In this document: positions 10,373 through 64,000 of the stretch, piece by piece | How the letters are laid out: every line of letters starts with the position of its first letter | How positions within the stretch are numbered: position 1 is the first letter of the stretch | Assembly (NCBI GenBank): GCA_034665065.1 | Contig: JAXDGL010000008.1 | Span: forward strand, 319,412-383,411 | Length of the DNA: 64,000 bases | DNA from: Thermoanaerobaculia bacterium | Lineage (GTDB): Bacteria > Acidobacteriota > Thermoanaerobaculia > Gp7-AA8 | Direction of reading: 5' to 3' | Made by a program: the position numbers and the translations under genes | The notes under the pieces: generated by a model | Databases searched by the model: none | What the model was told of the DNA's origin: nothing | What the model saw: the letters and a program-made list of their open reading frames with translations, nothing else

Positions 10373-10416
10373 AAATCATAAAAGACGTTGTCGGTTTTCG
10401 GTTGTCAGTTGTCTGC

Positions 10417-38883: not shown

Positions 38884-39003
38884 GGCGTTCCTTTATGCGG
38901 CGCTCCCGGCGCTCTGGCATCGGCCACGTTTTCCTTTGCACACCGATAGCATGTCACACTCATAGCATGACTAGCAACAGGAACATGGACGCACACTCAA
39001 AGC

Positions 39004-39231
39004 ATGGCTGTTCGTCCGGTCGAGAAGTTCGCCGCGCACCTTCGCGAGTTGCGCGAGAAGCGTGGACTCTCGCAGACGAAGCTCGCGGAGCTGGCCGGGC
39101 TCAATCGGAACTACGTCGGCGACGTGGAACGCGGTCGCCGGAATCCATGCTTCGATAACATCATCAAGCTGGCCGAGGGGTTGAACGTCTCGCCATCGGA
39201 ACTCTTCCGGCCATTTGACAAACGGCGGTAG
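39004..39231 (+). CDS. XRE-family HTH transcriptional regulator
   Basis: LRELREKRGLSQTKLAELAGLNRNYVGDVERGRRNPCFDNIIKLAEGLNVSPSELF is the canonical HTH_3. Confidence 0.8.
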   Translation: MAVRPVEKFAAHLRELREKRGLSQTKLAELAGLNRNYVGDVERGRRNPCFDNIIKLAEGLNVSPSELFRPFDKRR

Positions 39232-39249
39232 CGAACCGATACTCCCTTT

Positions 39250-39516
39250 ATGCCAAAGGGGTCAAGCAAGCGCCCGAAGAAGCGCGAGGACGAAGCGCAG
39301 GCCGCCGTCCGCGTCATGAACACGATCGCCGCGAGGTCTGAGGCGGACGCGCTCGATGATGCACCGGTTGAGATCACTGACGCCATGCGCGCCGCTGCCG
39401 CCGCGTTCGGGCGCATGGGCGGAAAGATTGGCGGACCGGCGCGAGCGGCGAGCATGAGCGCGAAGCGGCGCTCCGAGATCGCCAAGAAAGCTGCGCGTGC
39501 GCGTTGGCAAAGGTAG
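39250..39516 (+). CDS. hypothetical small basic protein
   Basis: 88 aa. Lys/Arg-rich ends. 18 nt downstream of the XRE gene. Confidence 0.4.
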   Translation: MPKGSSKRPKKREDEAQAAVRVMNTIAARSEADALDDAPVEITDAMRAAAAAFGRMGGKIGGPARAASMSAKRRSEIAKKAARARWQR

Positions 39517-39656
39517 CCCGCTCGGATCAAGGCAAGCGAGGTTACCGGAGTCGTTAGGGTGAGTGCTAAAGTGTAGGCGAGCAAAGACACGAAAACCGGC
39601 TGGCAGGTCGGTCGTGCGAAGTTACGTGAGGGGCAATCGAGCGTGGAGATCTTGCC

Positions 39657-40247
39657 ATGCCGATGTTTGCTTGTCAAAGCAGTCCAGGATCATCAAGTCA
39701 ACCGATTGCAGCGTACGGGTTCCCAATGCCGCTCGCCGAAAGTGATATCAAAGAGCTGTTGAGCTTTACCTACATGCGGGCCATCGCCGCAAGGGCTGGG
39801 TTCCGCGTCAATCATCCGTACCCTGACCGCCAACATGATGACTTGCAAATCGACTCGTGCGGTCGATTAGAGCCGGACGGCTGGAGTGCAGCGCGCATCG
39901 ATTTTCAGGTCCGAGCAACAACCACGATCCCCCTTGCTGATGGCGGCGAATTCGGATTCCAGGTCGAAAGGTCTCTGTATGATGACCTTCGGGATGATAG
40001 GCGCTGCGCACCTTTGTTGCTGGCTGTCTTCATAATGCCGCCGAACCCCGAGCAATGGCTGAGCGCTACTGCCGCCGAACTGATCACACGCCACTGCGCC
40101 TATTGGGGCAACATTAAGGGCGCGCCGCCTATCGAGGCAGAGTCTCGCGTCCTACACGTCAAACGCGCCAACACACTCACGGCGGCTTCGCTAACCGATT
40201 TGATGAGGATCGCCGGACGGCGGCAGGAGATTGGCGATGCTTTATAA
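39657..40247 (+). CDS. DUF4365-like hypothetical protein
   Basis: 196 aa. Lower-GC codon usage. Loose resemblance to the DUF4365 family (recalled). Confidence 0.5.
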   Translation: MPMFACQSSPGSSSQPIAAYGFPMPLAESDIKELLSFTYMRAIAARAGFRVNHPYPDRQHDDLQIDSCGRLEPDGWSAARIDFQVRATTTIPLADGGEFGFQVERSLYDDLRDDRRCAPLLLAVFIMPPNPEQWLSATAAELITRHCAYWGNIKGAPPIEAESRVLHVKRANTLTAASLTDLMRIAGRRQEIGDAL

Positions 40248-41367
40248 AGGTCTGCCGGTCGACTCCCTGAAGCATGTCAATTACATTGCCGTGCGCAATT
40301 ACATCAAGAGCCGTGGCTGGACCAGGATCGGTAACGGCACAGGCACGGCATTGTTTCGCTCTCCGAGCGATCCAGATGCTGAAGTACTCTTGCCTCTGTC
40401 GAAGATGTTCTCTGACTATTCGATGCGCATAGGAGATCTGATCCTAGCGGTGTCGGAAATCGAACAGATTCCCCCGGTACGGTTGATGGCTGATCTACTG
40501 TTGCCGCCCAGCGATATATTGCGTTTCAGTGTTCAAGCGACGGACACGTCTAGCGGTACCGTGCAATTCGACAGCGGCATGGATTTGTACGCCGGTATTC
40601 GCACAGCAATGCTAAGTTCTGCGAGAGCCGCCGAACATCCCGAGAAATATTTCGAGCGCCTAAAGGATTCGGACGACTTTGTGTCGCAGTGCCGACTTGG
40701 ACAGACGGAGTTCGGCAGTTTTACCGCCACGTTTGTGTGTCCTGTTGAGGCGCTGCCTGAAATCGACGTGCAGCCTGATCTCTTCGCTGATTTAGCACAC
40801 GCGCCGACTGCTAGAGAACCATTCGCGCGCAAAGTCACGCGGACACTCATGCAGGCTGTCGCTATCGTCGCTAACGCCATTGCAAATGATACCGTGGCTG
40901 ATTTGATTGCCTCGACAGGGCCGGTTAGCGCGAATCTATGTGAAGCGTTGTTAAGGATGGAGCCGGTACAGGACGGTCAATTGACAGTCGCCTCAAGCTG
41001 GGCGCGTGTATTGATTCCACCGGCCGATACCGCTGCTTATGTTGTAATACCAAAAGAATACTTCGGTCCCATTGCGGAGATCGCGACTGCGCTTCGTCCT
41101 TCAAAGGAACCAAAGGATGCACCTTTCGTAGGCAAGGTCATTACGTTGGCCGGACAGGAGCACGATGGCGAGCTGTCCGGTCCAGTGACACTTTACATCT
41201 TGACGGATGACGAGCCGGTCCGCGCTCGGGTGAGTCTGAGCCACGATGACTATATGAAAGCTTACGACGCGCACGGTAGAATGACGGCGGTTTCTATTAC
41301 CGGGAAATTGAAGCGCGCCTCACGATCGGCTGAGATCATCGATTACACCGATTTCAAACTTGTTTAG
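40231..41367 (+). CDS. hypothetical protein (partner of 39657 gene)
   Basis: 378 aa. Overlaps the upstream gene by 17 nt. No recognisable motifs. Confidence 0.55.
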   Translation: MAMLYKGLPVDSLKHVNYIAVRNYIKSRGWTRIGNGTGTALFRSPSDPDAEVLLPLSKMFSDYSMRIGDLILAVSEIEQIPPVRLMADLLLPPSDILRFSVQATDTSSGTVQFDSGMDLYAGIRTAMLSSARAAEHPEKYFERLKDSDDFVSQCRLGQTEFGSFTATFVCPVEALPEIDVQPDLFADLAHAPTAREPFARKVTRTLMQAVAIVANAIANDTVADLIASTGPVSANLCEALLRMEPVQDGQLTVASSWARVLIPPADTAAYVVIPKEYFGPIAEIATALRPSKEPKDAPFVGKVITLAGQEHDGELSGPVTLYILTDDEPVRARVSLSHDDYMKAYDAHGRMTAVSITGKLKRASRSAEIIDYTDFKLV

Positions 41368-41586
41368 TAGCTCGCTATCCACGTCCTGTCCCTCCCATAT
41401 CGATTCCGCTTTCGGTGTGCGTTGGTCCCTGTTGGTCCAAGGCCGGTCCAGCCACCTGCGAGAGCGTGGCGTGACGCACCGACAGCAGCCGCCGTGTGTT
41501 ACGATCCTGTCGGGCGGTAGTGGCGACTGATCATCGTTCCGACGCCGGACAGCTCGCGCCCGGTCCGCCCGAAGTGCGTTCCTAGC

Positions 41587-42435
41587 GTGGGCAGGAGCGC
41601 GAGCGTGAGCGTGAAACGACGGCGGAAGAGTGCGCGCGCAGACGAGTCTCTCGCCGATTTACAAAGCACCGATCCCTTCGCAGATATCGACTTTATCTCC
41701 TCGCAGCTATGCAATGAGCGATCAGGATGGAGCGACCCGCCCGCCGAAGACATCGTTACTCTGCAAGTGTCAAGGACGGTCCAAGCCTCCTTCAGCACTC
41801 GCGCGTTAGTTGCCGGCTTAATGGTCGGATTTGACGACATTCTTAGCACTTCGCCACGCGGTTCCGAGTTCGAAGCATCACTCCGCGAGTTAATGAGTCG
41901 CCGCCCCGACCTCTCGGAGAGCGAAGCGCGCACAGCCCGCCTAAAGCTGCACGCAGCCGCTGTCCAAATTTTCACCTCCGAGGCGGCCAGAGCATTTGAG
42001 CAGTTGATTCCACAGTTGCTGAGCCTCGCTGTCACCGTTGCCGTCGCCGCAGCAGAGCCGATTGCGGCTGAAGCCGCGCAGGGGTATCAGCCTCGGGACA
42101 TTAAGACCGGCGAGAGAATACGTTTCACGTTTCCCAAAGAGAGAAAGATCGAGTGGCGCGAGGGAATCTTGCGAGACACAGAGAGTGAAATCCGGAAGAT
42201 CCTCGGGAAGCTTAAAAGCTCTCCAGGGGCAAAAGGTACCGCAACGCGCGACCTTCACGCCTTTCAGCGGCGCGAGGAAGTATTTGCTCGTGAGAAAGCG
42301 AGCGGCAAGAGCGACCGACTCGCGTGGACGGCGGCGAAGGCTACCGTGCAGAACGAATTCCCCAAGCTACGCAAAGAAGCTACCTATGAAACTGCTATGA
42401 GGCGCGGTAGGCGGATCGCTCCCCCGAAGAAATAG
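41587..42435 (+). CDS. hypothetical protein
   Basis: 282 aa. Competes with the antisense ORF 41499..42035. The plus-strand ORF is favoured by length and codon bias. Confidence 0.4.
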   Translation: MGRSASVSVKRRRKSARADESLADLQSTDPFADIDFISSQLCNERSGWSDPPAEDIVTLQVSRTVQASFSTRALVAGLMVGFDDILSTSPRGSEFEASLRELMSRRPDLSESEARTARLKLHAAAVQIFTSEAARAFEQLIPQLLSLAVTVAVAAAEPIAAEAAQGYQPRDIKTGERIRFTFPKERKIEWREGILRDTESEIRKILGKLKSSPGAKGTATRDLHAFQRREEVFAREKASGKSDRLAWTAAKATVQNEFPKLRKEATYETAMRRGRRIAPPKK

Positions 42436-42718
42436 AGGAGAGTAATTCATCGCCCCATCTAATCCCGCCCGCACAATTCTTGCCCCCATCGAAAGCAAAG
42501 AATCTTCTATCCGATATTGCTCGCGCAGAAATGGCGTGCTTCACTCAGCTCCACAAGCCGAAGCCTGTTTGCGGCGGGGGGAAAGGAGTTGATGTGCATG
42601 AGAAGACTGCAAGCCGTCCGCGTTCTGGTCACCGACGCGGAGAGCGGCCAGAAACACGAACGCCGTCTCGGGTAGTTGCTTGACCGGCAACCGAGACGGC
42701 GGGTGGTGATCCTGCGAT

Positions 42719-42795
42719 GCTCCCGTAGCTCAATCTGGACAGAGCGGCGGTCTACTAAACCGACGGTGTGGGTCCGAGTCCCACCGGGAGCGCCA
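42719..42795 (+). tRNA. tRNA-like gene with atypical anticodon (parses as ACU)
   Basis: Cloverleaf: acceptor GCTCCCG/CGGGAGC, D-arm GCTC-AATCTGGACA-GAGC, anticodon arm GCGGT-CTACTAA-ACCGA (G27·A43 mismatch), T-arm GTGGG-TCCGAGT-CCCAC, discriminator G, CCA. The short variable loop is inconsistent with Ser. Confidence 0.55.
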
Positions 42796-42906
42796 ATTCT
42801 ATTCGCACGCGGGCTGCCGGTCCAGCGGTAGCTCGATATTGTTACATCTTCAATCTTCACCCCTCAAGCATTGACGTTCTGACCCCTCAAGCATATATTT
42901 TCTTAC

Positions 42907-43791
42907 ATGAACAAACTCTCCAGTGACGCCCGCGCCCGCATCATCATGGCTCTGATCGAAGGCAACTCGATCGCGTCTACGTGCCGGATGACGGGCGCGG
43001 CAAAGATGACGGTGCTGAGTCTCATCCGCGAAGTCGGCACCGCATGCGCCGCGTTCCATGACGCGGTTGTGCGCGACCTCGCAACGGAGCGCGTGCAGGC
43101 CGACGAAGTATGGTCGTTCTGCGGCATGAAGCAGAAGAACGTCCCTGCCGACTTGCAAGAGACGGTCGGCATCGGCTCGATCTGGACGTGGACGGCGCTT
43201 GATGCGGACACGAAGCTGATGATTTCTTGGCTGGCGAGTAACCGTAGTGCGGAAGCTGCGAACGCGCTCCTCGCTGACCTCAAGTCCCGCACGTCGGCAT
43301 CGAACGAAATCCAAATCTTCTCGGATGGACTGGCGTAGTACATCGATGCGGTCCGGCAGAGCTTCGCACCCGGTGAAGCGAACCTTGGTCAAGTCGTGAA
43401 AACCTACGAAACCAGTAGTCCGCAGCCGGGCATGAATCCGAACAGTGCGGCGAGTAGGTATTCACCGGGACGCCTGCTCTCGATCGAGAAAACTGCACCT
43501 CTCGGCACGCCGGACATGAAGCACGTTTCGACCTCGTTCATGGAGCGGTTCAACCTCACGCTCCGCATGCAGAACCGGCGCTTCACGCGCCTGACGAATG
43601 GCTTCTCAAAGAAGTTCGAGAACCATTGCCACATGCTTGCAATGACGATGGTTTACTACAACTTCTGCCGGAAGCATCAGTCACTGAAGGGCCGGACGCC
43701 CGCGATGGCGGCGGGACTTACCGAGTATCGTTGGACGGCGGCGGATCTGCTGTCGCTGGAGATGTGGAGCGCGGCGGAAGCGGCAGCCTAG
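42907..43791 (+). mobile_element. IS1-family DDE transposase interrupted by a single in-frame TAG
   Basis: Recalled similarity to E. coli IS1 InsA HTH (ARIIMALIEGNSIASTCRMTG) and InsB (DEVWSFCGMKQKN; …IFSDGLA*YIDAV…; ERFNLTLRMQNRRFTRLTNGFSKKFENHCHMLAMTMVYYNF). ORFs 42907-43338 and 43396-43791 share a frame; the TAG at 43336-43338 is the only interruption. Confidence 0.75.
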
Positions 43792-44037
43792 CGCAGCCGC
43801 TTGCGCAGCTCACGCCGTATCTGATCCGCTATTTCGTCATCAGACTTCCCATGGTCTACGACGAACTCCACCAACGGATCACGGAGGATATGCACGTGCC
43901 ATTCGTTATTCGTTTGGCTGCCAACGATGCTCCATAGCGCGGTTACGCCGAATTCACCCTCGACAATAGGTTTCGCGATGGCCGTCAATTTGGATTGCAT
44001 GATTGTGGAGGGGTCGCTGGCCCCCGTTCCCTACCCC

Positions 44038-51415: not shown

Positions 51416-53605
51416 ATGTACCAATCGACGCGACGTTTCCTCCCTCTCACTCTTCTCACCTTTCTTCTCGCCGGATCACTTTTTGCGCAGACCTCCGGGA
51501 CTCTGACCGGCAAAGTTACGACGGGCGCCGGCGCACCGGTCGCCAGTGTGGACGTTCAGCTCGTCGATCTGCGACGCAGCACGACGGCTGACACATCCGG
51601 CGCGTATCGATTCGACGCCGTTCCGCCCGGCCGGCACCTCGTGCAGGTGGTCAGCGCACGCGCCGGCACTTCGGTGCGCCAGATCGATACCTCTGGCGCG
51701 AACACAACGCTTGACGTCGTCCTCGACCTCGCCGTTCACCGCGAGGAAATCGTCGTCAGTGCCACCGGCGGTCCACAGATGGCCTCGGAAGCTGCGCAAC
51801 CGGTGGACGTCATCTCCGGCACCGACCTTCAGGCGCGACAGCAGCCGACCCTCGGCGAAACGCTGGCCAATGAGCCTGGCGTTTCCTCAACCGGATTCGT
51901 CCCAGGCTCCAGCCGTCCGCTCATCCGTGGCCTCGGCGGCGACCGCATCCGCATTCTGGAGGATGGCATCGGCACCGGCGACGCGTCGAACGTCAGCCAG
52001 GATCACAACGTCACGATCGATCCGGTCAACGCCCGCAGCATCGAGATCGTGCGCGGACCGGCCACGCTTCTCTACGGGAGCAATGCCATCGGCGGCATCG
52101 TCAACGTTCTCGATGATCGCGTTCCCACCAGCGCGGCGAAAGGGATCAACGGCTCGGTAGACCTGCGCGGCACCTCGAATGCGCATGAGCGCAACGGCGA
52201 GATCTCGTTGGACGGCGGCAGCGGCATGTTCGCCTGGCACGGCAATTACGGACAGCGGAAGACCGGAGACTACGACACGCCGATCGGCAAGCTGTTCAAC
52301 AGCGATATCGACGCGAAGAACGGTGCCCTCGGCGCGTCGCTCGTCGGCGCCAAAGGCTTTCTTGGGCTCGCCTACAGCGGTTACGACACGAACTACGGCG
52401 TCTCGAATGCCGGACCGGGCGTTGAGCCCGAGGAAGTCGTGCGCATCGACATGCGAAACCGGAAGTGGGACCTGCGCTCCGAGCTCGAAGGCGGCGGTGG
52501 TCCGTTCAGCCGCTACCGCTTCCGCTTCGGACGGTCGGATTACACGCACTCCGAGGTCGCCGACGGCAATACGAACATCACGTTTCACAACAAGTTCAAT
52601 GAAGGCCGCCTCGAGGCGACGCAGCAGGCGTTTGGCGCGCTCACAGGCTCGATGGGTGTGCAATTCTCGAAACGCGATTTCTTTACCACCGGCGAAGAGC
52701 TTCTTCCGCCGACCCTGACGAAGAACATGGCAGCCTTCATCTTCGAGGAGGCGGGGAAGGGCACGTGGCGTTTGCAGTTCGGCGGGCGCTTCGAGAATCA
52801 GAAGGTGAATGTTGCGTCGGACGAACTGCCGGACCGCAGGTTCAACGGTCTGTCAGGCTCGGGCGCGCTTGTATACGTGCCGAACGCCGGCTACTCGGCG
52901 TCGTTGGCGCTGTCGCACTCGGTTCGCGCCCCGGTAGCGGAGGAGCTGTATTTCCGCGGCGCGCATGAGGCGACGTTCCAGTTTGAGATCGGCGATCCGA
53001 ACCTTCGCAAAGAAACGTCGAACGGCCTCGATCTTTCCTTTCACAAGCGTACCGGCATGGTGACGGGGACGGTCAGCGTCTACGCGAATCGCTACAACGG
53101 CTACATCTTCCAGGATCCCACCGGCGACGAAGAGGAAGGCTTTCCGGTATTTGTCTTCGCGCAGCGCGATGCGAAGTTCAACGGTGCGGAAGGTCACGCC
53201 GACATCTCGCTCTATCACACGGATCCGAATCATCTGGCGCTGGAGATCACCGGCGACTACGTTCACGCCGGCCTGTCGAATGGCGGAGGTCCGATCCCGT
53301 TCATTCCGCCTGCTCACCTCGGCGTCGGCCTGCGATTTCAGGGAGAAGCGCTCTATTTGCTGGCCGAGGCGCGGCATGCGGCGAAACAGGATCGCGTAGC
53401 GGACTTCGAGACGACCACCCCCGGGTACACGCTCCTGAACGCGGCGATCGGCTACCGGTTCTTCGCCGGCAATACCGTCAGCGATGTCATGTTGCGCGGA
53501 AGCAATCTGACCGACAAGCTGGCCCGCAACCACGTCAATCCGCTCAAGGACGCAGTGCCGCTGCCGGGCCGCGACATCACGTTGTCATATCGACTCACGT
53601 TCTGA
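51416..53605 (+). CDS. TonB-dependent receptor with N-terminal carboxypeptidase-regulatory-like domain
   Basis: Signal peptide. CarbopepD_reg (GTLTGKVTTGAGAPVASVDVQLVD…), plug (IEIVRGPATLLYGSNAIGGIVNV), barrel ending LSYRLTF. Confidence 0.85.
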   Translation: MYQSTRRFLPLTLLTFLLAGSLFAQTSGTLTGKVTTGAGAPVASVDVQLVDLRRSTTADTSGAYRFDAVPPGRHLVQVVSARAGTSVRQIDTSGANTTLDVVLDLAVHREEIVVSATGGPQMASEAAQPVDVISGTDLQARQQPTLGETLANEPGVSSTGFVPGSSRPLIRGLGGDRIRILEDGIGTGDASNVSQDHNVTIDPVNARSIEIVRGPATLLYGSNAIGGIVNVLDDRVPTSAAKGINGSVDLRGTSNAHERNGEISLDGGSGMFAWHGNYGQRKTGDYDTPIGKLFNSDIDAKNGALGASLVGAKGFLGLAYSGYDTNYGVSNAGPGVEPEEVVRIDMRNRKWDLRSELEGGGGPFSRYRFRFGRSDYTHSEVADGNTNITFHNKFNEGRLEATQQAFGALTGSMGVQFSKRDFFTTGEELLPPTLTKNMAAFIFEEAGKGTWRLQFGGRFENQKVNVASDELPDRRFNGLSGSGALVYVPNAGYSASLALSHSVRAPVAEELYFRGAHEATFQFEIGDPNLRKETSNGLDLSFHKRTGMVTGTVSVYANRYNGYIFQDPTGDEEEGFPVFVFAQRDAKFNGAEGHADISLYHTDPNHLALEITGDYVHAGLSNGGGPIPFIPPAHLGVGLRFQGEALYLLAEARHAAKQDRVADFETTTPGYTLLNAAIGYRFFAGNTVSDVMLRGSNLTDKLARNHVNPLKDAVPLPGRDITLSYRLTF

Positions 53606-53608
53606 GCG

Positions 53609-53923
53609 ATGGCCGAGGTCCAGGGCGTCTTCGAGCAAGCCGTGTTGATCGCGGTGGCGACCCTGGACCGCGAGTCGTCGGGTGCAACGATCGTTGCCGC
53701 GGTGCGCGAGCGGCTGCAACGCAACGTGCACTCCGGCTCGGTACACAGCACGTTGCAACGGCTGGAACAGAAGCAGTTGATCACGTCGCGGAAGGGCGCG
53801 ATGCCCGACCGCGGCGGCCGGCCAAGACGTTATTTCGCGGTCAACGAAGAGGGCATTCGCGCGTTGCGCCGCGCGAAGGTGGAGATCCAGCGAGCGTGGG
53901 GCGATTTCGTCGCGGAGCGATAA
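53609..53923 (+). CDS. PadR-family transcriptional regulator
   Basis: IAVATLDRESSGATIVAAVRERL…GSVHSTLQRLEQKQLITS…RRYFAVNEEGIRAL matches the PadR winged-helix pattern. Confidence 0.6.
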   Translation: MAEVQGVFEQAVLIAVATLDRESSGATIVAAVRERLQRNVHSGSVHSTLQRLEQKQLITSRKGAMPDRGGRPRRYFAVNEEGIRALRRAKVEIQRAWGDFVAER

Positions 53924-54171
53924 GGGATCGCGCGCGGACTCAACTTCCGGTGGGTCTCAGGATCGGAGCGGGGTAGCTCGGAACAATCGTCGCAGTAACA
54001 ATCGTGAGCCGTGATTCAACGCCTGGCGAATCAGCATCCGATCGAAGCGATGGAAATCTCGGCGGTCTCGTTCTCGACTTCTTCGAGCGGCTTTTATCAC
54101 GCCGGCATTCTGACAAATCAAACCCGGCGCGATGGGGACTTTGTGCTCAAACTACCGGCTTTCGTCGGGCA

Positions 54172-54951
54172 TCACAGCCGCAGCAGCCGCTCGCGCAGCA
54201 GCCGCGAATGAAAGCGGCTCGTTTGCAGCTCCTGTCCGTTGGATAGCAGCAGCACGAAGGTTCCGCCGGGCATCGGCGTGGCTTTGGTGATCGTGTTGAT
54301 GTTCGCCAGCGTGCCGCGGCTCAGGCGGATGAACTCTTCGCGATCGAGCCGCGCTTCGAGATCCTTCAAACGATAGGAGATCGTGTGCTTCACGCCGCGA
54401 ATGGTCGTCAGATGCAGCAGCTCGCCGTCGGCGATCACGGAGGCGACCTCATTGACCGGCACGAGCACGATCTCGTTCTTGCGGCGGACCGGAATGCGCC
54501 GTAACGGACCCGCGCTCGTGGCCTCGAACGCGCTTGCGGCTGTGCGGACATTCTTCACGGCCGCTGCGCGGGCATCATCGCGATCGAGGCGGTCGATGGC
54601 GCGGCTCACCGTTTCGCGCAGGCGCGCGGCATCGACGGGCTTGAGGAGATAATCGACAGCATTCAGCTCGAAGGCGCGCACGGCGTATTCGTCGTAGGCT
54701 GTTACGAACGCGATCATCGGCATCAAGCCGCGCTTGATGAGGCGCACCACGCCGATGCCGTCGACTTCCGGCATCTGCAGATCGAGTAGCGCCAGATCGG
54801 GTTTCTCGCGCTCGATCAACTCGACCGCAGCCGCTCCGTCCGTGGCCTCTCCGACGATCTCGACGTCGTGGAAGCGCCGCAGCATCGACAGCAACAGAGA
54901 TCGCGCCGGCCTCTCATCATCGGCGACGATCACGCGCAACCGGTCTCTCAT
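54172..54951 (-). CDS. LytTR-family response regulator
   Basis: Receiver domain (VIVADDERPARSLL…DLALLDLQMPEVDG) plus LytTR DNA-binding domain (…LHLTTIRGVKHTISYRLKDLEARL…FIRLSRGTLANI). Confidence 0.9.
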   Translation of the reverse strand: MRDRLRVIVADDERPARSLLLSMLRRFHDVEIVGEATDGAAAVELIEREKPDLALLDLQMPEVDGIGVVRLIKRGLMPMIAFVTAYDEYAVRAFELNAVDYLLKPVDAARLRETVSRAIDRLDRDDARAAAVKNVRTAASAFEATSAGPLRRIPVRRKNEIVLVPVNEVASVIADGELLHLTTIRGVKHTISYRLKDLEARLDREEFIRLSRGTLANINTITKATPMPGGTFVLLLSNGQELQTSRFHSRLLRERLLRL

Positions 54952-56750
54952 GCGCGCCTCGCGATCGGGAGGAGGATCTCGGCGCGCGTTTCGTCAGCCG
55001 TAGCGACGAGCGTCAGACTGGCGGCATCGCCGTACTGATGGCGCAGGCGCGCATCGAGGTTCGAGAGCCCTACGCCCTGCTGCCGGCCGCGGATGATGTC
55101 CGACTCGGTCGCCCGAGCGCCGCTGTTGCGGACAGTAATCGCCAGGATGTCGCCGTCGGAGCGGCTCTCGATGCTGACGCGCCCGCCGCTTCTGCAGTTG
55201 GCGATGCCGTGCTTGATGGCGTTCTCGACGAGCGGCTGGATCATGAGCGCCGGCACGCGGATTCCCCGCAGCTCGCCGGGGACGTCGATGTCGATGCGCA
55301 GTCTTTCTTCGAAGCGTGCGCGCTCGATCTCGAGATAGGCGCTGACCAGGTCGATCTCGTCGCCGAGCGTGGTGGCGGCATCCGCGGAACGGAGGACACC
55401 GCGCAGCAACGCCGTCAGCTTCATCAGCGTTCCGTGGGCGCGCGTTGGCGAAGTCTGGATGAGGTAGCCGATCGTGTTCATGGCGTTGAAGAGGAAGTGC
55501 GGATTCACCTGCGCGCGAAGCGCTCGCAACTCGGCTTCCGTGGCCAGCCTGCTTTGTTGATAGCGCTCGCGCTCGAGCCGGATGGTGTCGATGCGGCGCG
55601 CCGCCAGCAGTGCCATATTCTCGAGCATGGCCAGATCGTCGGAGAGCAAACGACGGCCCCCGGCAAGCGGACCAATCACGAGCGCATAACGCGGCGGCTC
55701 CGTCGTCCGAATGGACATCACGTCGTCACCGGCATCGAGACCCTCTTCGATCCATCGCATCTCATCGGCTGCCAGCGGCGACCGCAATGCATCGGCGAGA
55801 GCATTCATCACCGCAGGCGGCTCTTCCAGCGCACCCAGGGATTGATCGAAATCCTCGCGAAGGCGTTTGTAGTCGACGCGATGCAAGACGACGCGATCGA
55901 CGATCCACGCGGCTCCTCGGCACAACGGTGGATAGAGGAGGGCCAGCCCGGCCCAGAGAATTACGGAGACGCCGACCGCGACCGGATCGCTGCGGAAGTC
56001 ATGCTGCGCGAGGAGTGGCACTTCCACGCCGACGTACAGCCCCGAGGCGATGGCGACGAGCGCGAAGAGGGCGATGGCGCGCTTCAGAAAAAGATCCGCC
56101 AGCGCGAATCGGAAGTCCTGGTAGAGGATCGCGAAAATCAATGGGATCGATGCGTGATGTCCCGCCAGCTCGATGAACCACGATTCCGTTGCACCTTCGC
56201 GGTGACTGAGATGCAAGGCAGAGACAGCGAAGACCGCCAGCGCGACGATCGACCAGCCGCGCGCCGAACCGGTTCGGCGGCGTGTCAGCAGAAAGAGCGG
56301 AATCGTCAGCGCGAGGTAGAACCAGGTGAGTGTCTGCAGAGCGACAACCGAAGGCACTGGCGCGCCGCTGGAAGCCGCTCGGAACATGAGCGTTTCGGCA
56401 ACGGTGCTGATCGCATACGAACCCCAGACGATCGCGGCCGCGGTTCGGCGATGACGCGCCTCCGACTGCGATCGGAGGACGGTGTGGACGACGACAGCAG
56501 GCAGAAACCCGAGGGCGCTGTACGCCGTCGCGATCAGAAAAGGGGATGCGTCGCCGCCCGCGAAGTCGCGAATTCCGAATGCGGCGAGGCCGCTGACGTT
56601 CCAGATGAGTCCGAGGATTGCTGTGACGAGCGGAAGGCGATCGTCGCCCACGCGCCGCCGCACGACCAGCGCGAAGAGCATCGCGTAGAGCGCTGCGCCG
56701 GTCAGGAAGCCAATCAGGTGCACCAGTGCGGCGACGTTGTGGGGCGGCAT
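54948..56750 (-). CDS. LytS-type sensor histidine kinase
   Basis: Multi-TM N-terminus. H-box NPHFLFNAMNTI (His_kinase/LytS type). HATPase (ENAIKHG…GVGLSNL). 4-bp overlap with the RR gene. Confidence 0.85.
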   Translation of the reverse strand: MPPHNVAALVHLIGFLTGAALYAMLFALVVRRRVGDDRLPLVTAILGLIWNVSGLAAFGIRDFAGGDASPFLIATAYSALGFLPAVVVHTVLRSQSEARHRRTAAAIVWGSYAISTVAETLMFRAASSGAPVPSVVALQTLTWFYLALTIPLFLLTRRRTGSARGWSIVALAVFAVSALHLSHREGATESWFIELAGHHASIPLIFAILYQDFRFALADLFLKRAIALFALVAIASGLYVGVEVPLLAQHDFRSDPVAVGVSVILWAGLALLYPPLCRGAAWIVDRVVLHRVDYKRLREDFDQSLGALEEPPAVMNALADALRSPLAADEMRWIEEGLDAGDDVMSIRTTEPPRYALVIGPLAGGRRLLSDDLAMLENMALLAARRIDTIRLERERYQQSRLATEAELRALRAQVNPHFLFNAMNTIGYLIQTSPTRAHGTLMKLTALLRGVLRSADAATTLGDEIDLVSAYLEIERARFEERLRIDIDVPGELRGIRVPALMIQPLVENAIKHGIANCRSGGRVSIESRSDGDILAITVRNSGARATESDIIRGRQQGVGLSNLDARLRHQYGDAASLTLVATADETRAEILLPIARRA

Positions 56751-57125: not shown

Positions 57126-57527
57126 TCTAAAACCCTCGCTCCCAAGTCGTCAGAACCCTAGTCTCCCTCGACGTCACCTGAGGCTCGGCGCTGCCTTCGC
57201 TGCGAGCGCTTAATCGCAAAATAACCTTCCGTTCGCCAAAACTTAATCCCCATGGTCCGCAAACGGCCTCACTATGACCGATGTGTGGTTGTGTGTCCAT
57301 TTTTATATAGTATTTTTGGAAACTAGTCCTTAAGTTCATTCTGATACTGCTGCCGTAATAACGCACGTATCTATATGAAAATAAAGGACTTGCACTTTTT
57401 AAACGAACTGCTACAGTGCCCTCCCCAAAGTCGACACGATCGGCTTAGGTCCAATCCAAATAACTCACGAAACCCCTGTAAAAGGTCATCGCGCCTGCAT
57501 CTGGCGCTACCCACAAAAGGAACCCGA

Positions 57528-60500
57528 ATGAAACGAGCTCTTCCCTTTCTTCTTTTGTCGCTTCTTCTCGTCGGATCGCTCGATGCCGCGCCAGGTCGCC
57601 GCCACAAGAAAGTGGCGCAGTCCGAGGTTACGGTGGAGGCGGAGGTGGAGGCAGGCAAGGCGCTTCGTGCCGCCGTTGGCGAGAGGGAGAGGAAGTCGAA
57701 TGAGGATACGGGTACCATCGTAGCCAAGCCGGTGCCGATTCCGTTTGGACCCCCGATTGAGCTGCAACTGAAGCGCGCTGACAGCCGCAAGTTCGATCTG
57801 CGCTCCCTCCCAAGGACGCAGCCGGTACAACAGGAGCGCGCGGAGCTTCCGGAGCCGGCGTTCCACCCTGTCACCGTCCAGGCGACTGGTGTTCCGCCGA
57901 CGGCCAATCTGCCCGCTGTGCCTCTTCCATCGGCTCCGGCGCCACCGCCGATCGCAGTCTACGAGGGGCTCGATCGTTTCAATTGGGGAGCCGGCAGTCC
58001 TCCCGATACGAATGGTGACGTCGGTCCGAACAACTACATTCAGACCGTCAACTCCTCGATTGGCGTGTACCGGAAGTCCGACGGCTTCCAGCAGGCGGCA
58101 TTCACGTTCAACACGTTCATGAGCCAGGGCAACTTCGGCAATCTGTGTGACACCAACAATTTCGGCGATCCGGTCGTCCTCTACGACACATTCGAAGACC
58201 GCTGGATCATCACGGACTTCGCGTTTGTGCTCGACGGCGGCGGCAATGTGGTCGCTCCTGCCTACCAATGTTTCGCTGCCTCGATGACTGGCGATCCGGT
58301 CGCCGGCGGGTGGAACTTCTACTCCATCCAGATCTCGGATGCTCTCAACGATTATCCGAAGTTGGGCATCTGGCCGGACGGTCTTTACATGTCCGCGAAC
58401 ATGTTCACCTTCGGCGCCGGCTCCGCGTTCACGAGCGCCCGCGCCTGGGCCTTCAACAAGGCGCAGATGTATGCCGGAAGCCCGACCGTGAAGGTGGTCT
58501 CCTTCAACATTCCCGGCGGCGATTTCACGGTCATCCCCAGCAACGCACGCTTGCAGACAGGCACGCCGCCACCCGGGCGTCCCAATCTGTTCACCTCCAG
58601 CTGGCTCTTTACGAACGCTCTGACCGTCTATCAGTTCCACGTTGACTGGAACAGCATTTCGCAGTCGACGTTCACGGGCCCGGATACACCCATTGCCGCT
58701 ACGAGCTGGCCGAACGCTGCCGTCGCGAACGCCGCGCAGCCGGGTACGGCTACGCTCCTCGATGTCCTTCAGATCCGCGCCATGGTGCAGAACCAGTACA
58801 CGAACTTCGGCGGCACCGAGTCGTTGTGGATCCCTCATACGGTTCGCCGAGGAAATACGAGTGGATTCGCTGCGCCGCGCTGGTACCAGGTGAACGTCAC
58901 CGGCGGCGCGGTCAACCCTGCTATCCCACAAGCGGCGACGTGGGATCCGGACAATGCCAACGTCGTCAATCGCTTCATGCCCAGTCTGGCGCTTGACCGG
59001 GCCGGGAACATGGCCATGGGCTACAGCACCTCGAGTGGGACGGTCTTTCCCTCGATCATGTATGCGGGCCGGCTGGCAGCCGATGCGGTCAATACCTTCA
59101 GCCAGACCGAGCAGACGTTCTTTACCGGCACCGCTTCACAAACAGGTACGACTCGATGGGGTGACTACAGCGCTATGACGCTCGACCCGGACGGTTGTAC
59201 GTTCTGGTACACGACCGAGTATGCAAATCCGGCGGACCAGACCTTTAATCATCGCTGGCTGACCAAGTTCGGCTCGATCGGAGCATTCCCCGGATGCACC
59301 CCGGTTGGAGCGGGTGGTACGGTTTCCGGTACGGTGACCGCCGCGGCCGGCGGCGCGCCAATCAGCGGCGTCACGGTGCAGTTGGGCGCGGGGCGTTCGA
59401 CGACCACTGACGGCTCGGGCAATTACTCGTTCACCAGCATTCCCGCGGGCACCTACCCGACGATAACCGCGAGCAAACCAGGATTCGTCTCAGGATCCGC
59501 GTCGTCGATCGTCGTCACTGACGCCGGCACCACGACGCAGAACTTTTCGCTGGCCGCTGCTGCGTCGAGCTCCTGCCTCACCGACACCACACAGTCCGAT
59601 TTCTTGACTGGCGTTACTTCCGCAACCGTCGACATCAACACATCTCCCGGCGACGTCACATTGTCCAATGCACCGACCTCTGACCAGGCGAACACCGCCG
59701 GCACGACAACCGGAACCGGCTTTGGCACCCCTGCCTGGACCGGTCAGACCTTCATCGCGGGAGTCAGCGGTCTACTCGTGAAAGCCGATGGCCAGCTCTT
59801 CTGCAACGGTTGCGGCGCGACACCTCCGGACCTCACGCTTTCCCTCCGCGCGACTTCGGCTGGTTTGCCGACAGGCGCTGATCTCGCCACCGCGACGGTC
59901 CTCGGTGCGCAGTTTGCCAGCGGTGCGTCCGTCCTCTTCACGGCGACCTTCGGCTCGCCGGTCTCGATCACTTCCGGAACGCAATACGCTCTGGTCCTGC
60001 GGCCGGTCTCCGCTCCGGCGGGCTCCGGCTATTTCTGGATTCGCTCTTCGCCGAGCACGTACACCAACGGTTCGCGTGTTCTGTCGGCCGACAGCGGCGG
60101 CACATGGTCCGCCGATACCACGCGCGATTACAACTTCAGAACGTACGTTCAGGTCGGCTATGCAGCAGCAGGCAACTTCGTGTCGTCTCCCAAGGATTCC
60201 AATCCGGGAGGCGGACTGACGCCGATCTGGTCGACGTTCTCATGGAACGGTTCCACTCCCGCGAATACATCGTTGCAGTTCCAGCTCGCCGGATCGAATA
60301 ACGTCAACGGACCGTTCAACTTCGTCGGACCGGACGGCACCGCGGGAACATTCTTCACGACCTCACCGGCGCAGCTCTCGCCCCAGTTCTACAACTTCCG
60401 GTTCCTCGAGTACAAGGCATTCCTTGCCACCACCGATCCCAACGTCACGCCCACGCTCAGCGACGCCACCACCTGCTTCAACGACGTCGATTGCAGCAGT

Positions 60501-62930
60501 ACGGCGGCTACGATCACGCCAACACCGGCAGCGGTCTGCACAAACTCGACCGGCAATACCGCCGCTGGTCCGGCTGGCATGATCTCTTACGCATGGGGCA
60601 TTGCCAACGGCACGATCACCTCCGCGACGAACATGCAGAGCATCACCTATACGGCCGGTGCGTCTGGTAGCGTCACGTTGAATCTCACCGTCACGGCAGC
60701 AAACGGATGCATCATCTCCGGCTCGACGCCGGTTACGATCAACCCTATACCGGCCACACCAACGATCACCGCGGGCGGGCCGACGGCATTCTGCAGCCCC
60801 GGCAGCGTCACGCTCACATCGAGCAGCGCTTCGGGTAACCAGTGGTACCTCAACGGAAACCCGATCGGCGGCGCCACGAACAACACCTATGTCGCCACCG
60901 CATCGGGTAACTACACGACCGTTGTCACAGCGCTCGGCTGCAGTAGCGCGGCCTCGAATTCCATCGCTGTGACCGTCAACCCGATCCCGGCCACGCCCAC
61001 GATCACTCCCGGAGGAGCGACGACGTTCTGCGCCGGCGGAAGCGTGACGCTGACGTCGAGCAGCGCAAGCGGCAATCAGTGGCTGCTCAACGGCAATCCG
61101 ATCGGCGGTGCCACGAACACGACGTACAACGCGACGGCCAGCGGCAACTACACGGTCACCGTGACGACGAGCGGCTGCACCAGCGCGCCATCATCGGCAA
61201 CGACCGTGACCGTGAACCCGATCCCGGCCACGCCCACGATCACTCCCGGAGGAGCGACGACGTTCTGCGCCGGCGGAAGCGTGACGCTGACGTCGAGCAG
61301 CGCAAGCGGCAATCAGTGGCGGCTCAACGGCAATCCGATCGGCGGTGCCACGAACACGACGTACAACGCGACGGCCAGCGGCAACTACACGGTCACCGTG
61401 ACGACGAGCGGCTGCACCAGCGCTCCGTCTTCGGTCACGACCGTGACGGTCAACCCGCTTCCGGCCACACCGACGATTACACCCGGAGGCCCGACGACGT
61501 TCTGCGCCGGTGGCAGCGTGACGCTGACCTCTAGTAGCGCGTCCGGCAATCAGTGGTATCTGAACGGCAACCCGATCGGCGGTGCCACGAATACAACGTA
61601 CTCCGCCACCGCCTCAGGCAGCTACAAGGTCGTCGTGACGGCAAGCGGATGCAGCAGCGCTCCATCGGCGGCCACGAATGTAACTGTCAATCCCAACCCC
61701 AACGCCACGATCACGGCGCCGGCCAGCGCGGCAACAGGGTCGACCGGCAACATCGCCTCCGTCGCCAACGCCGGAGTCGGCGCCACCTATAACTGGAGCA
61801 TCACCAACGGCACGATCACGGCGGGCACGGGCACCAACAGCATCACCTTCACTGCCGGCGCGGTGGGAACGTTGACGCTCAACGTCACCGTGACTACGAG
61901 CGCCGGTTGCAGCGACGCCAAATCGGCCAACGTCAACGTCGTCGTTCCACCCGTGACCGTAACCTCGGTGTCGCCGACCGGCGGCACGATCGCAGGCGGC
62001 TCGGCAGTGACGATCAACGGGACAGGCTTCGCCAGCGGTGCGAGTGTCACCTTCGGAGGAGCGACGGCGACGAATGTCGCTGTTGTCAGCGCCATCAAGA
62101 TCACGGCCAGGACTCCAGCCCACGCGCTTGGCGCCGTCAACGTGACGGTGACGAACGTCGATACGACGAGCGGCACGCTCGTCGCCGGCTATCTCTACAA
62201 GGCCCAGCAATTTGATCCGAACAACGACGGCACGATCACCTCGTCGGACATTTTCTATCTTGTGAACTACCTCTTCCTTGGCGGTCCCGCGCCGAGCGCT
62301 GCGGCGGGTGTGTTGTCAGGTGATGCGAACGGCGATGGAGTTGTCAACGCGTCCGATATTTTCTACCTCGTGAACTATCTCTTCCTCGGCGGCCCGCGGC
62401 CTAACGCGGTTCCGACTCTGACGCCTTCCGCTCTTTCGGCGGGCACGACGGAGACGGGCGCGATCGAGGGCTCGATCACGCTTGGCAAACCGTTGCAGCG
62501 CAACGGCCGCTACGTCGTCCCGGTCGTGATGTCGATCGTCCCGGGCTCGATCACCCCGCAGTCGATGGCGTTGCGCGTTCACTTCGACGGGGAAGGAAAC
62601 GTCGGTACTGTGTCCGTTCGTAAAGCAGGTGCGGCGAATGATCTTGCAGTGCCGTTTGAGATCGCGCGCAACGTGGACAACGATCTGTCTTACCTTGTTT
62701 CCTATGGCGGGCTGAATCTTGGACAAAGCCGTTCGGCGGTCGTCGCCGAAATCGAGATCGATTCGGTGGACGGAGCCGTAGGTCTCAGCATCGATCCGCA
62801 GTTGACAATGATCGGCGATCAAGCCGGCCAGGAATCGGCGACGGTTGCGAATGGAAAGCTTCAGGTCAAGGGCGCATCGATTGGCAAGACCCTCATGAAA
62901 CCGAATGCGCATGGAAACGAAGTGAATTAA
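57528..62930 (+). CDS. giant secreted multi-domain protein with Ig-like tandem repeats, a dockerin module and a C-terminal cohesin-like domain
   Basis: Signal peptide MKRALPFLLLSLLLVGSLDA. 5 near-identical ~80-aa repeats (PIPATPTITPGGATTFCAGGSVTLTSSSASGNQW.LNGNPIGGATNTTY.ATASGNYTVTVTTSGC). Dockerin duplicated segment DPNNDGTITSSDIFYLVNYLFLGG / DANGDGVVNASDIFYLVNYLFLGG. Confidence 0.8.
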   Translation: MKRALPFLLLSLLLVGSLDAAPGRRHKKVAQSEVTVEAEVEAGKALRAAVGERERKSNEDTGTIVAKPVPIPFGPPIELQLKRADSRKFDLRSLPRTQPVQQERAELPEPAFHPVTVQATGVPPTANLPAVPLPSAPAPPPIAVYEGLDRFNWGAGSPPDTNGDVGPNNYIQTVNSSIGVYRKSDGFQQAAFTFNTFMSQGNFGNLCDTNNFGDPVVLYDTFEDRWIITDFAFVLDGGGNVVAPAYQCFAASMTGDPVAGGWNFYSIQISDALNDYPKLGIWPDGLYMSANMFTFGAGSAFTSARAWAFNKAQMYAGSPTVKVVSFNIPGGDFTVIPSNARLQTGTPPPGRPNLFTSSWLFTNALTVYQFHVDWNSISQSTFTGPDTPIAATSWPNAAVANAAQPGTATLLDVLQIRAMVQNQYTNFGGTESLWIPHTVRRGNTSGFAAPRWYQVNVTGGAVNPAIPQAATWDPDNANVVNRFMPSLALDRAGNMAMGYSTSSGTVFPSIMYAGRLAADAVNTFSQTEQTFFTGTASQTGTTRWGDYSAMTLDPDGCTFWYTTEYANPADQTFNHRWLTKFGSIGAFPGCTPVGAGGTVSGTVTAAAGGAPISGVTVQLGAGRSTTTDGSGNYSFTSIPAGTYPTITASKPGFVSGSASSIVVTDAGTTTQNFSLAAAASSSCLTDTTQSDFLTGVTSATVDINTSPGDVTLSNAPTSDQANTAGTTTGTGFGTPAWTGQTFIAGVSGLLVKADGQLFCNGCGATPPDLTLSLRATSAGLPTGADLATATVLGAQFASGASVLFTATFGSPVSITSGTQYALVLRPVSAPAGSGYFWIRSSPSTYTNGSRVLSADSGGTWSADTTRDYNFRTYVQVGYAAAGNFVSSPKDSNPGGGLTPIWSTFSWNGSTPANTSLQFQLAGSNNVNGPFNFVGPDGTAGTFFTTSPAQLSPQFYNFRFLEYKAFLATTDPNVTPTLSDATTCFNDVDCSSTAATITPTPAAVCTNSTGNTAAGPAGMISYAWGIANGTITSATNMQSITYTAGASGSVTLNLTVTAANGCIISGSTPVTINPIPATPTITAGGPTAFCSPGSVTLTSSSASGNQWYLNGNPIGGATNNTYVATASGNYTTVVTALGCSSAASNSIAVTVNPIPATPTITPGGATTFCAGGSVTLTSSSASGNQWLLNGNPIGGATNTTYNATASGNYTVTVTTSGCTSAPSSATTVTVNPIPATPTITPGGATTFCAGGSVTLTSSSASGNQWRLNGNPIGGATNTTYNATASGNYTVTVTTSGCTSAPSSVTTVTVNPLPATPTITPGGPTTFCAGGSVTLTSSSASGNQWYLNGNPIGGATNTTYSATASGSYKVVVTASGCSSAPSAATNVTVNPNPNATITAPASAATGSTGNIASVANAGVGATYNWSITNGTITAGTGTNSITFTAGAVGTLTLNVTVTTSAGCSDAKSANVNVVVPPVTVTSVSPTGGTIAGGSAVTINGTGFASGASVTFGGATATNVAVVSAIKITARTPAHALGAVNVTVTNVDTTSGTLVAGYLYKAQQFDPNNDGTITSSDIFYLVNYLFLGGPAPSAAAGVLSGDANGDGVVNASDIFYLVNYLFLGGPRPNAVPTLTPSALSAGTTETGAIEGSITLGKPLQRNGRYVVPVVMSIVPGSITPQSMALRVHFDGEGNVGTVSVRKAGAANDLAVPFEIARNVDNDLSYLVSYGGLNLGQSRSAVVAEIEIDSVDGAVGLSIDPQLTMIGDQAGQESATVANGKLQVKGASIGKTLMKPNAHGNEVN

Positions 62931-62948
62931 GACGGCAAGAGGAAAGAA

Positions 62949-63629
62949 ATGAACGATCACGTCATTGCAATGAAGATTCGTCGTGCAGCCATCCTTGTCG
63001 CCGTGGCCGCTCTGCTATGCGCTCCTGCCGCATGGCCGGCGGTGCTCACACCCGATTCGGTCACGGTGGCAACCGTCAACGGCCCGCAGTACTCGCAGGT
63101 CGACGTGCCTGTGTACATTCGCGATCTCTCAGGAACTCCTCTGGGTCTGGACCAACCACCGGGGTCGCGCATCCAGGCATACAGCCTTACCGTGAACTAT
63201 TCGCCGGCGTCGGCGGTGCAATCGATCAGCTTTTCGAGAGCGGGCATTACGACGCCGCTGACACCAGCATTTGAAAGCAGTCCTTCCAGCGCTGGATCGA
63301 TCTCGCTGCTCGATTCTTTTCAGGAGTCGACCAATCCCATTCCGTTCACACTCAATGCAGCCGCACCGGGAAACCAGGTGGCTCATCTGCTGGTCACGCT
63401 CGCTCCTTCCGCTACGCCAGGCACGGTCATCACGCTGACGCTCGACCCCACGCTCACCCAGCTCTCTAACGACAGCGGCACGACGTCGGAGTCGACAACG
63501 GCGGCCACGCTCACTCTCGTCAATGGCGCGATCACGGTCGTCCCTTCGGTTCCGGCGATGTCGCACACCCTCCTTCTGTTGCTGGCTGTTTCTCTGGCAT
63601 TCATCGGATCGCGTATCATCCGCTTCTAG
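62949..63629 (+). CDS. cohesin-like protein with C-terminal hydrophobic anchor (PEP-CTERM-like tail)
   Basis: Signal peptide. VDVPVYIRDLSGTPLGLDQPPGSRIQAYSLTVNYSPASAV resembles the cohesin beta-sandwich start. C-terminal VPSVPAMSHTLLLLLAVSLAFIGSRIIRF. Confidence 0.6.
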   Translation: MNDHVIAMKIRRAAILVAVAALLCAPAAWPAVLTPDSVTVATVNGPQYSQVDVPVYIRDLSGTPLGLDQPPGSRIQAYSLTVNYSPASAVQSISFSRAGITTPLTPAFESSPSSAGSISLLDSFQESTNPIPFTLNAAAPGNQVAHLLVTLAPSATPGTVITLTLDPTLTQLSNDSGTTSESTTAATLTLVNGAITVVPSVPAMSHTLLLLLAVSLAFIGSRIIRF

Positions 63630-63708
63630 TCATCCCACTTTGCGTGTGCGGCCCGGATTCTCGTCCGTGCCGCACATCGTCGTATGTCACCAATTCCCAG
63701 GACACCTC

Positions 63709-64000
63709 ATGACCTCGAAGCAATCCCCCGCGGTGCTGTTGCTGTTGATTTTTCTGGTACTGATCACGGCGTTCGCTGCCTTGCCGGCATCAGCGCAGGA
63801 CGCGGTGACGATCGGCACGGTCACCGCGAGCGGCAACACGGTCGATGTTCCGGTCTACATCCGCGACGCTTCAGGCACGCCGTTGGGCCTCGATCAGCCG
63901 GCGGGGTCGCGTATCCAGTCGTTCAGCATCACGGTGAACTATTCTCCGTCGTCGGCGGTACAGGCGGTCAGTTTCTCGCGAGCGGGAATCACATCGTCGT
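63709..64000 (+). CDS. cohesin-like paralog (partial, runs off window)
   Basis: VDVPVYIRDASGTPLGLDQPAGSRIQSFSITVNYSPSSAVQAVSFSRAGIT is near-identical in motif to the 62949 gene. Confidence 0.6.
   Translation, partial: MTSKQSPAVLLLLIFLVLITAFAALPASAQDAVTIGTVTASGNTVDVPVYIRDASGTPLGLDQPAGSRIQSFSITVNYSPSSAVQAVSFSRAGITSS

Follow-up and report, generated by a model that had tools for sequence, protein, structure and literature searches.

We found that the end of a 64,000-nucleotide stretch of DNA from a Thermoanaerobaculia bacterium (contig JAXDGL010000008.1; hereafter the window) encodes what looks, from its domains and gene order, like a system for the non-cellulosomal, non-covalent display of large proteins on the surface of a diderm cell. 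Three open reading frames (ORFs), all on the + strand, were recognized there from the ORF list and the translations: a gene for a giant protein with a dockerin, a gene for a small cohesin-like protein, and a third gene. We consider it reasonably probable that the main function of the locus is the calcium-dependent tethering of interchangeable giants to the small cohesin protein, which would be anchored through a tail of the IPTL-CTERM class. The best-known examples of cohesin-dockerin pairing are the cellulosomes of Gram-positive anaerobes, and the interaction is widely exploited in protein engineering.

An exact match identified the small protein as NCBI tag QOK37_1595 and the parent contig as Ga0467037_0000007 of the Joint Genome Institute (JGI), from a metagenome-assembled genome (MAG) of Thermoanaerobaculia (Acidobacteriota). 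With a GC content of about 61% in the window, this bears out the proposal of a non-clostridial, high-GC host made in the first-pass annotation, which had been written from the sequence alone. The maximal ORF of the giant spans 57375..62930 on the + strand and encodes 1851 amino acids (aa) in translation. Met52 (57528) is the likely start, as the signal peptide MKRALPFLLLSLLLVGSLDA begins there and the start called by JGI coincides with it, giving a protein of 1800 aa; the length of 1851 aa given earlier thus holds for the maximal ORF and not for the likely protein. Throughout, aa positions in the giant are counted along the 1851-aa maximal ORF. We refer to the loop-bearing cohesin-like domains of the small protein and the third ORF as class A and to the loop-less domain that follows the dockerin of the giant as class B. 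The features are as follows.

57528..62930, + strand: gene of the giant secreted protein, 1800 aa from Met52 (JGI gene call on the parent contig, Pfam domains, and translation)
57528..57596, + strand: Sec-type signal peptide of the giant (MKRALPFLLLSLLLVGSLDAAPG), read off the translation and in agreement with the JGI start
57918..60503, + strand: head module of the giant, aa 182-1043, made up of an N-terminal domain of ~470 aa without a family, a CarboxypepD_reg domain (59319-59552; Pfam, aa 649-726), and a middle domain of ~315 aa without a family
60504..62171, + strand: stalk of the giant, made up of a PKD-like module (60504-60740), four Ig_7 repeats (60741-61688; Pfam, four copies, aa about 1123-1438), PKD_6 (61689-61946; Pfam, aa 1441-1522), and TIG (61956-62171; Pfam, aa 1528-1599)
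62208..62396, + strand: type I dockerin of the giant, aa 1612-1674, with two F-hand loops, each followed by the helix SDIFYLVNYLFLGG
62460..62888, + strand: C-terminal cohesin-like domain of the giant (class B), without the RDxSGTPLG loop and followed by the conserved charged tail ...KPNAHGNEVN
62949..63629, + strand: small anchored cohesin-like protein, 226 aa, with a signal peptide (~62949-63041), a class A domain (~63054-63545), and an IPTL-CTERM-type tail (63543-63626; VPSVPAMSHTLLLLLAVSLAFIGSRIIRF)
63709..64000, + strand: 5' end (97 codons) of the third gene, cut by the window end and encoding a secreted protein of 617 aa; the full gene lies on the parent contig (L001:10761-12614)

A segment in the giant is duplicated as DPNNDGTITSSDIFYLVNYLFLGG and DANGDGVVNASDIFYLVNYLFLGG at aa 1614-1637 and 1650-1673, with 18 of the 24 residues identical. 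The first-pass annotation had called this a textbook duplicated dockerin and named the Pfam profile PF00404 as the check; Dockerin_1 (PF00404) matched aa 1614-1669 over profile positions 3-56 of 57 with 34.8 bits, well over the curated gathering score of 22.9, while the NCBIfam GC-type dockerin model matched weakly (18.5 vs 29). Asp1, Asn3, Asp5, and Asp12 of the loops DPNNDGTITSSD and DANGDGVVNASD occupy the calcium-ligand positions. In an AlphaFold2 (AF2) model of aa 1601-1851 (251 aa, 34 homologues), which has a predicted local distance difference test score (pLDDT) of 85.7 and a predicted template modelling score (pTM) of 0.80, the two dockerin helices (H23-35 and H59-71), which are almost identical in sequence, are visible, and the modelled fold matches those of solved type I dockerins, so that the earlier call was upheld at both levels. 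The cellulosomal type I pairs of Clostridium thermocellum (CipA-Xyn10B, 1ohz), C. cellulolyticum (2vn5), and C. acetobutylicum (6kgc) have the same two F-hand calcium loops and two near-identical helices. Because the two halves of the window dockerin are nearly identical, a dual binding mode is suggested in which either half could bind, and its symmetry is compatible with the dual binding mode of these pairs, which Carvalho et al. are said to have described in 2007.

The giant ends, after the dockerin, in a β domain of ~145 aa, and both downstream ORFs begin their own domains with the motif VDVPVYIRDxSGTPLGLDQPxGSRIQx[FY]SxTVNYSP, being 67% identical to each other over 162 aa; the common cohesin-like start of the two paralogs had thus been recognized correctly. 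The wider class A family carries the signature VPVY[IV]RDxSGTPLGxDxxxGxxIQ, and 858 proteins were found at E ≤0.001 in a word-indexed search and 388 clusters at 50% identity in an exhaustive profile search. The second check named in the first-pass annotation, the Pfam cohesin profile PF00963, found nothing in either downstream protein or in the domain that ends the giant, even at E values up to 10, and read literally this test fails for all three cohesin-like domains. The small protein also matched no family in Pfam or NCBIfam, and the cluster names of ten distant family members were uninformative.

Because Pfam and NCBIfam gave no cohesin match for these proteins, fold-level evidence was needed. 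Among 42 family members, Cohesin was the Pfam family matched most often, with weak matches to 6 of them (best E 0.0045). When the family profile was compared with the sequences in the PDB, four cohesins came out on top (E 5.7e-4 to 0.03, over short aligned stretches), and these were the only meaningful matches. Profile-profile comparison of the class A and class B families with hhalign gave a probability of 99.5% and an E value of 8.8e-23, and when the small protein was compared with the giant's C-terminal domain by pairwise BLAST, no match was reported; judged from the profiles, the two families are clearly homologous to each other. In the structural models, the domains are nine-stranded jelly-roll β-sandwiches of ~140-150 aa that can be superimposed on solved cohesins, those of ScaE, OlpA, and OlpC among them, with sequence identities of 9-25%. 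The AF2 model of the giant's C-terminal region is confident, and the earlier assignment of a cohesin-like domain to this end of the protein therefore stands despite the missing PF00963 match. The conserved extra loop of class A, RDxSGTPLGxDxxxGxxIQ, is not present in canonical cohesins and is poorly modelled.

This extra loop, the identity of at most 25% to solved cohesins, and the failure of the Pfam cohesin model to match any of the window proteins would all fit a reading in which only the fold is that of a cohesin and no dockerin is bound. In that case, the locus would encode co-expressed surface or secreted Ig-like proteins, and the dockerin would act as a calcium-binding stabilizer or as a binder of a target other than a cohesin. 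We regard this as rather improbable, since cohesins are the only meaningful sequence matches in the PDB and the tight pairing of a dockerin gene with a cohesin-like gene, described below, is what would be expected of cognate partners.

The small protein has an N-terminal signal peptide and ends in VPAMSH-TLLLLLAVSLAFIGS-RIIRF. This tail has the layout of an [IV]PTL-like motif, a hydrophobic helix, and a basic extreme C-terminus, with the motif diverged. An orthologue (P0044) that is 68% identical and named IPTL-CTERM by NCBI scored 23.1 against the TIGR04174 threshold of 20.5, PF18203 matched 2 of 42 family members (best E 1.1e-4), and more distant orthologues carry canonical [IV]PTL[SG]xW...R tails, such as IPTLSYLGLALLAISLGFIAVRLLK and VPTLGEWALGLLAIGLAFIAVRLRMS. 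Because an orthologue passes the TIGR04174 threshold, PF18203 matches within the family, and distant orthologues bear textbook tails, we assign the tail, from these sequence comparisons, to the IPTL-CTERM class, of which the window copy is a diverged member.

IPTL-CTERM proteins (TIGR04174/PF18203; mela_00855, PMC8671808) are likewise made by a diderm host with a signal peptide at the N-terminus and, at the other end, the [IV]PTL motif, a hydrophobic helix, and basic residues. The one member of the class for which an experimental localization was found, mela_00855, is the S-layer protein of the diderm Methylomirabilis lanthanidiphila and ends up in its outermost protein layer (PMC8671808), and a surface destination therefore fits the IPTL-CTERM tail. 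Unlike mela_00855, the passenger here is a cohesin-fold adaptor rather than an S-layer subunit, and the motif VPAMSH has diverged to below the model threshold.

The first-pass annotation had described PEP-CTERM-like tails on both downstream paralogs. Substrates of the PEP-CTERM/exosortase system have a similar general design, in that these secreted proteins of diderm bacteria end in a short motif followed by a membrane helix and a cluster of basic residues. This assignment was rejected, as the PEP motif occurs in none of the tails and NCBIfam reported no PEP-CTERM (TIGR02595) match; the tail belongs to the IPTL-CTERM class instead and is found on the first paralog only. The window stops at residue 97 of the second, which was also thought to be anchored. 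On the parent contig, it is a multidomain protein of 617 aa with a signal peptide, a class A cohesin domain, a Big_2-like domain (a weak Big_2 match), an FN3-like domain, and a C-terminal domain of ~220 aa without a family. It ends in ...DPSVQFAKKIE without a membrane segment, hydrophobic tail, or other anchor, and its C-terminal 422 aa gave no match in the PDB.

Anchoring scaffoldins with a single cohesin, namely ScaE of Ruminococcus flavefaciens (2zf9) and OlpA and OlpC of C. thermocellum (3ul4, 4dh2), follow the same logic as the anchoring proposed here. ScaE is anchored by sortase through LPXTG, and OlpA and OlpC through S-layer homology (SLH) domains, whereas the small protein would use the IPTL-CTERM class of signal, in which [IV]P[TA][LM] is followed by a membrane helix and then by basic residues. 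A further difference is that the anchor gene here is paired one-to-one with a presumed cargo gene.

This pairing was seen in loci from other assemblies together with 54 genome loci, all from Thermoanaerobaculia/Acidobacteriota MAGs, which were scanned with hidden Markov models (HMMs) of both cohesin families. The genome loci were collected with a narrow alignment (A1) that by construction returns only Thermoanaerobaculia/Acidobacteriota, so that this sampling does not mark the taxonomic limit of the family. A giant ending in dockerin-cohesin directly precedes the small gene in 37 of the 38 cases with enough upstream sequence. Conversely, the next feature after a giant is a small gene in 40 cases, a 617-aa gene in 6, another giant in 1, and the edge of the locus in 6; of 27 testable loci, 25 have the 617-aa gene as the last of the array. 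Longer arrays also occur, such as giant, small, giant, small, giant, 617-aa, and OY970284.1 (across L008 and L007) extends this to giant, small, giant, small, giant, small, giant, 617-aa. In the window, the giant and the small gene are separated by 18 bp and the small and third genes by 79 bp, and no terminator-like site was found between the three genes in a promoter/terminator scan that was otherwise uninformative; the three genes probably form a co-transcribed module.

The giants of different cassettes have in common their last ~750 aa (Ig_7, PKD, TIG, dockerin, and cohesin), with 52-82% identity, while their heads of ~1000 aa are unrelated, being of the type found in the window, Kelch, or sortilin/BNR-like. 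A second cassette in the same MAG as the window (L002) pairs a Kelch-propeller giant with a small protein that is 80% identical to that of the window. The dockerin-cohesin tandem is conserved in every giant. In three further loci (L055, L056, and L057; e.g. L055:3663-9884), large proteins (1300-2070 aa) have a dockerin in their interior with a class A cohesin directly after it, and the tandem is therefore a recurring didomain that is not limited to C-termini. The extreme C-terminus of the giants is also conserved and charged, ending in ...PRPRTPGxEVN or ...PQPRAPRSEMN and, in the window, ...KPNAHGNEVN (62889-62927; giants in L002-L060), and might be a recognition or export signal.

Two irregular arrays were observed among these loci. 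In L005/L006, a cluster of RHS/YD-repeat genes occupies the place of the giant, and a 57-codon ORF upstream of the small gene (9831-10001) matches only the last ~25 positions of the giant C-terminal domain (E 5.8e-8); it looks like a remnant left after replacement of the giant gene. The first giant of the OY970284.1 array (L008:2699-7975) is split into three overlapping ORFs, all of which match the head module, and either the gene is a frameshifted pseudogene or the assembly is wrong at this point.

In the mechanism that we favor, the small protein would be exported and fixed in the envelope via its IPTL-CTERM tail, the calcium-loaded dockerin of the giant would plug into the cohesin of the small protein, and the Ig/PKD/TIG stalk would hold the head away from the cell. 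A dockerin could instead find its base or partner in the 617-aa protein, which lacks a membrane anchor, and a further giant, or some other dockerin protein, could dock onto the C-terminal cohesin of the giant itself. Several observations weigh against this anchoring mechanism. The dockerin has several candidate partners, namely the cohesins of the small and the 617-aa proteins, that of the giant itself, and one encoded elsewhere, and cohesins outnumber dockerins in the locus by three to one. The model of the small protein has moderate confidence (pLDDT 66), its tail has no reported match to TIGR04174 or elsewhere in NCBIfam, where it falls below threshold, and those parts of the window that were examined showed no exosortase-like gene. 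The mechanism includes no route by which the 1800-aa giant would cross the outer membrane. Finally, the pTM of 0.80 for the dockerin with its own cohesin, reached despite a disordered linker, hints at a fold-back of the giant rather than an anchor.

This last point raises the possibility of an intramolecular clasp, in which the dockerin engages the next cohesin-like domain of its own chain and the small cohesins act otherwise, for example by binding the dockerins of other proteins or another ligand. The C-terminal didomain would then be a unit of folding or stability, or it could signal export or recognition, possibly in combination with the ...PRPRTPxxEVN end. The pTM for the 251-aa dockerin-linker-cohesin region, in which ~10 linker residues have a pLDDT below 50, suggests a defined orientation of the two domains, and the retention of the tandem in every giant, its occurrence with a class A cohesin in other large proteins (L055-L057), and the conserved extreme C-terminus all fit a clasp. 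We nevertheless consider it an unlikely explanation, though the least unlikely of the alternatives, because it leaves unexplained the anchored single-cohesin gene that follows almost every giant, and the pTM is the sole source from which a dockerin-cohesin contact is inferred. The clasp and the anchoring are also compatible with each other, since a clasp could be displaced.

The same didomain could, more speculatively, be a unit of polymerization, with the dockerin of one giant plugging into the C-terminal cohesin of the next. A non-covalent, calcium-dependent, pilus-like fibre of swappable heads would then grow from the IPTL-anchored cohesin or the 617-aa base, and the ~860-aa head would represent a novel extracellular module, either an enzyme or one that binds a receptor. 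We give this combination a somewhat smaller chance than the clasp.

Returning to the giant that would be tethered by the anchoring mechanism, its Ig_7 repeats number four, each of 79 aa, with pairwise identities of 77-97%, and Tandem Repeats Finder detected the array in the DNA as 3.9 copies at period 237 (60739-61666); the five near-identical Ig-like repeats of ~80 aa counted in the first-pass annotation are thus corrected to four. The repeats are bordered on both sides by PKD-like modules of different type, and the TIG domain follows. In the head, CarboxypepD_reg is the only Pfam family matched. Searches of PDB sequences with the N-terminal domain, the middle domain, and a 20-sequence profile matched nothing beyond the CarboxypepD_reg part, save for a tectonin-like stretch that was not significant (E 0.028). 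Because Pfam recognized no enzyme domain in the head, the "displayed enzyme" suggested earlier stays speculation; the head may serve adhesion or an unrecognized enzyme activity.

The head module (aa 182-1043) has more than 2777 homologous proteins at 60-83% identity, with named sources in Pyrinomonadaceae, Thermoanaerobaculia, Tahibacter (Gammaproteobacteria), Chloroflexota, Micromonosporaceae, and Alphaproteobacteria. These homologues differ in their C-terminal tails, which contain DUF4214, DUF11, or Ig_7, and their alignment has many invariant residues, among them eight cysteines. A module of ~860 aa is thus extraordinarily conserved across several phyla without a family assignment apart from the embedded CarboxypepD_reg.

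Given that the interaction modules are the same as those of cellulosomes, we also considered a cellulosome-like complex for polysaccharide degradation, with the giant as a dockerin-bearing enzyme. This is very improbable and was rejected. No glycoside hydrolase, lyase, esterase, or carbohydrate-binding module (CBM) reached the Pfam threshold in the window giant or in two other cassette giants, leaving no carbohydrate-active enzyme (CAZyme) as cargo; every cohesin protein carries a single cohesin, so that there is no multi-cohesin scaffoldin; and there is one dockerin gene per anchor gene, unlike in enzyme-rich cellulosomes. Besides lacking a CAZyme cargo and a multi-cohesin scaffoldin, the locus differs from the cellulosomal pairs in that its host is a diderm member of the Acidobacteriota and not a Firmicute, its cohesins fall below the Pfam threshold, with an additional conserved loop in class A, and a cohesin comes after the dockerin in the same chain. 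As with the non-cellulosomal modules of Archaeoglobus fulgidus (2xdh) and of the Clostridium perfringens toxin complex (2vo8, 2w1n, 2o4e), cohesin and dockerin would serve outside cellulose degradation here, and both modules may occur in one polypeptide. Such non-cellulosomal cohesin and dockerin modules were reportedly surveyed by Peer et al. in 2009 (FEMS Microbiol Lett 291:1).

The surroundings of the cassette were read from the window and the parent contig. Directly upstream of the giant (51416-56750) are genes for a TonB-dependent receptor that begins with a CarboxypepD_reg domain, for a PadR regulator, and, in divergent orientation, for a LytTR response regulator with its histidine kinase; these may regulate the cassette. 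Past the window end, the 617-aa gene is followed (L001:12626-20681) by a PIN-domain gene, two ExbD genes, ExbB, TonB, and PspA, and after PspA by a gene for a 3059-aa protein with Tc-toxin-like domains (ABC_toxin_N, TcA_TcB_BD, and VRP1). The ExbBD-TonB block adjoins the cassette in one other locus (L003) too. Elsewhere in the window, the stretch at ~39000-44000 has a GC content of 0.57-0.59 compared with ~0.62 and contains many short ORFs without a family match, a gene with an XRE-type helix-turn-helix (HTH), and a DUF4365 gene, and possibly represents a small island of mobile or defence genes. Positions 2845-4065 encode an AbiEii-like AAA_21 ATPase, and a tandem of three amidohydrolase paralogues (8729-13282) precedes a TonB-dependent receptor (14372-16204). 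Two exact-match protein searches made for other parts of the window returned nothing.

The types of module found here and the general principle of the locus are already established. What appear to be new are a cohesin subfamily below the reach of Pfam with an extra loop, the IPTL-CTERM anchor, the operon of giant, anchor, and 617-aa genes with one anchor gene per cargo, and the swapping of heads on a constant tail. A full-text search of the literature returned nothing that links IPTL-CTERM to cohesins and nothing on dockerins in Thermoanaerobaculia. To our knowledge, the giant/anchor/617-aa operon, the IPTL-CTERM anchor, head swapping, and the restriction to Thermoanaerobaculia/Acidobacteriota, as sampled here, have not been described previously.

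The locus thus presents what looks like a conserved, operon-encoded version of cohesin-dockerin pairing, widespread in an important lineage of abundant, uncultured soil Acidobacteriota and built on a cohesin family that standard domain models miss. Its layout is one of one cargo and one anchor, with a different signal for attachment to the cell (IPTL-CTERM) and with giant cargos whose heads are swapped while the tail stays constant. Thousands of proteins, moreover, contain an unannotated extracellular module of ~860 aa that is extremely conserved. If the proposed pairing is true, protein engineers would gain orthogonal cohesin-dockerin pairs, IPTL-CTERM sorting would acquire a first class of passenger and a testable function, and it would become clear how very large proteins are kept on the diderm envelope of these bacteria.

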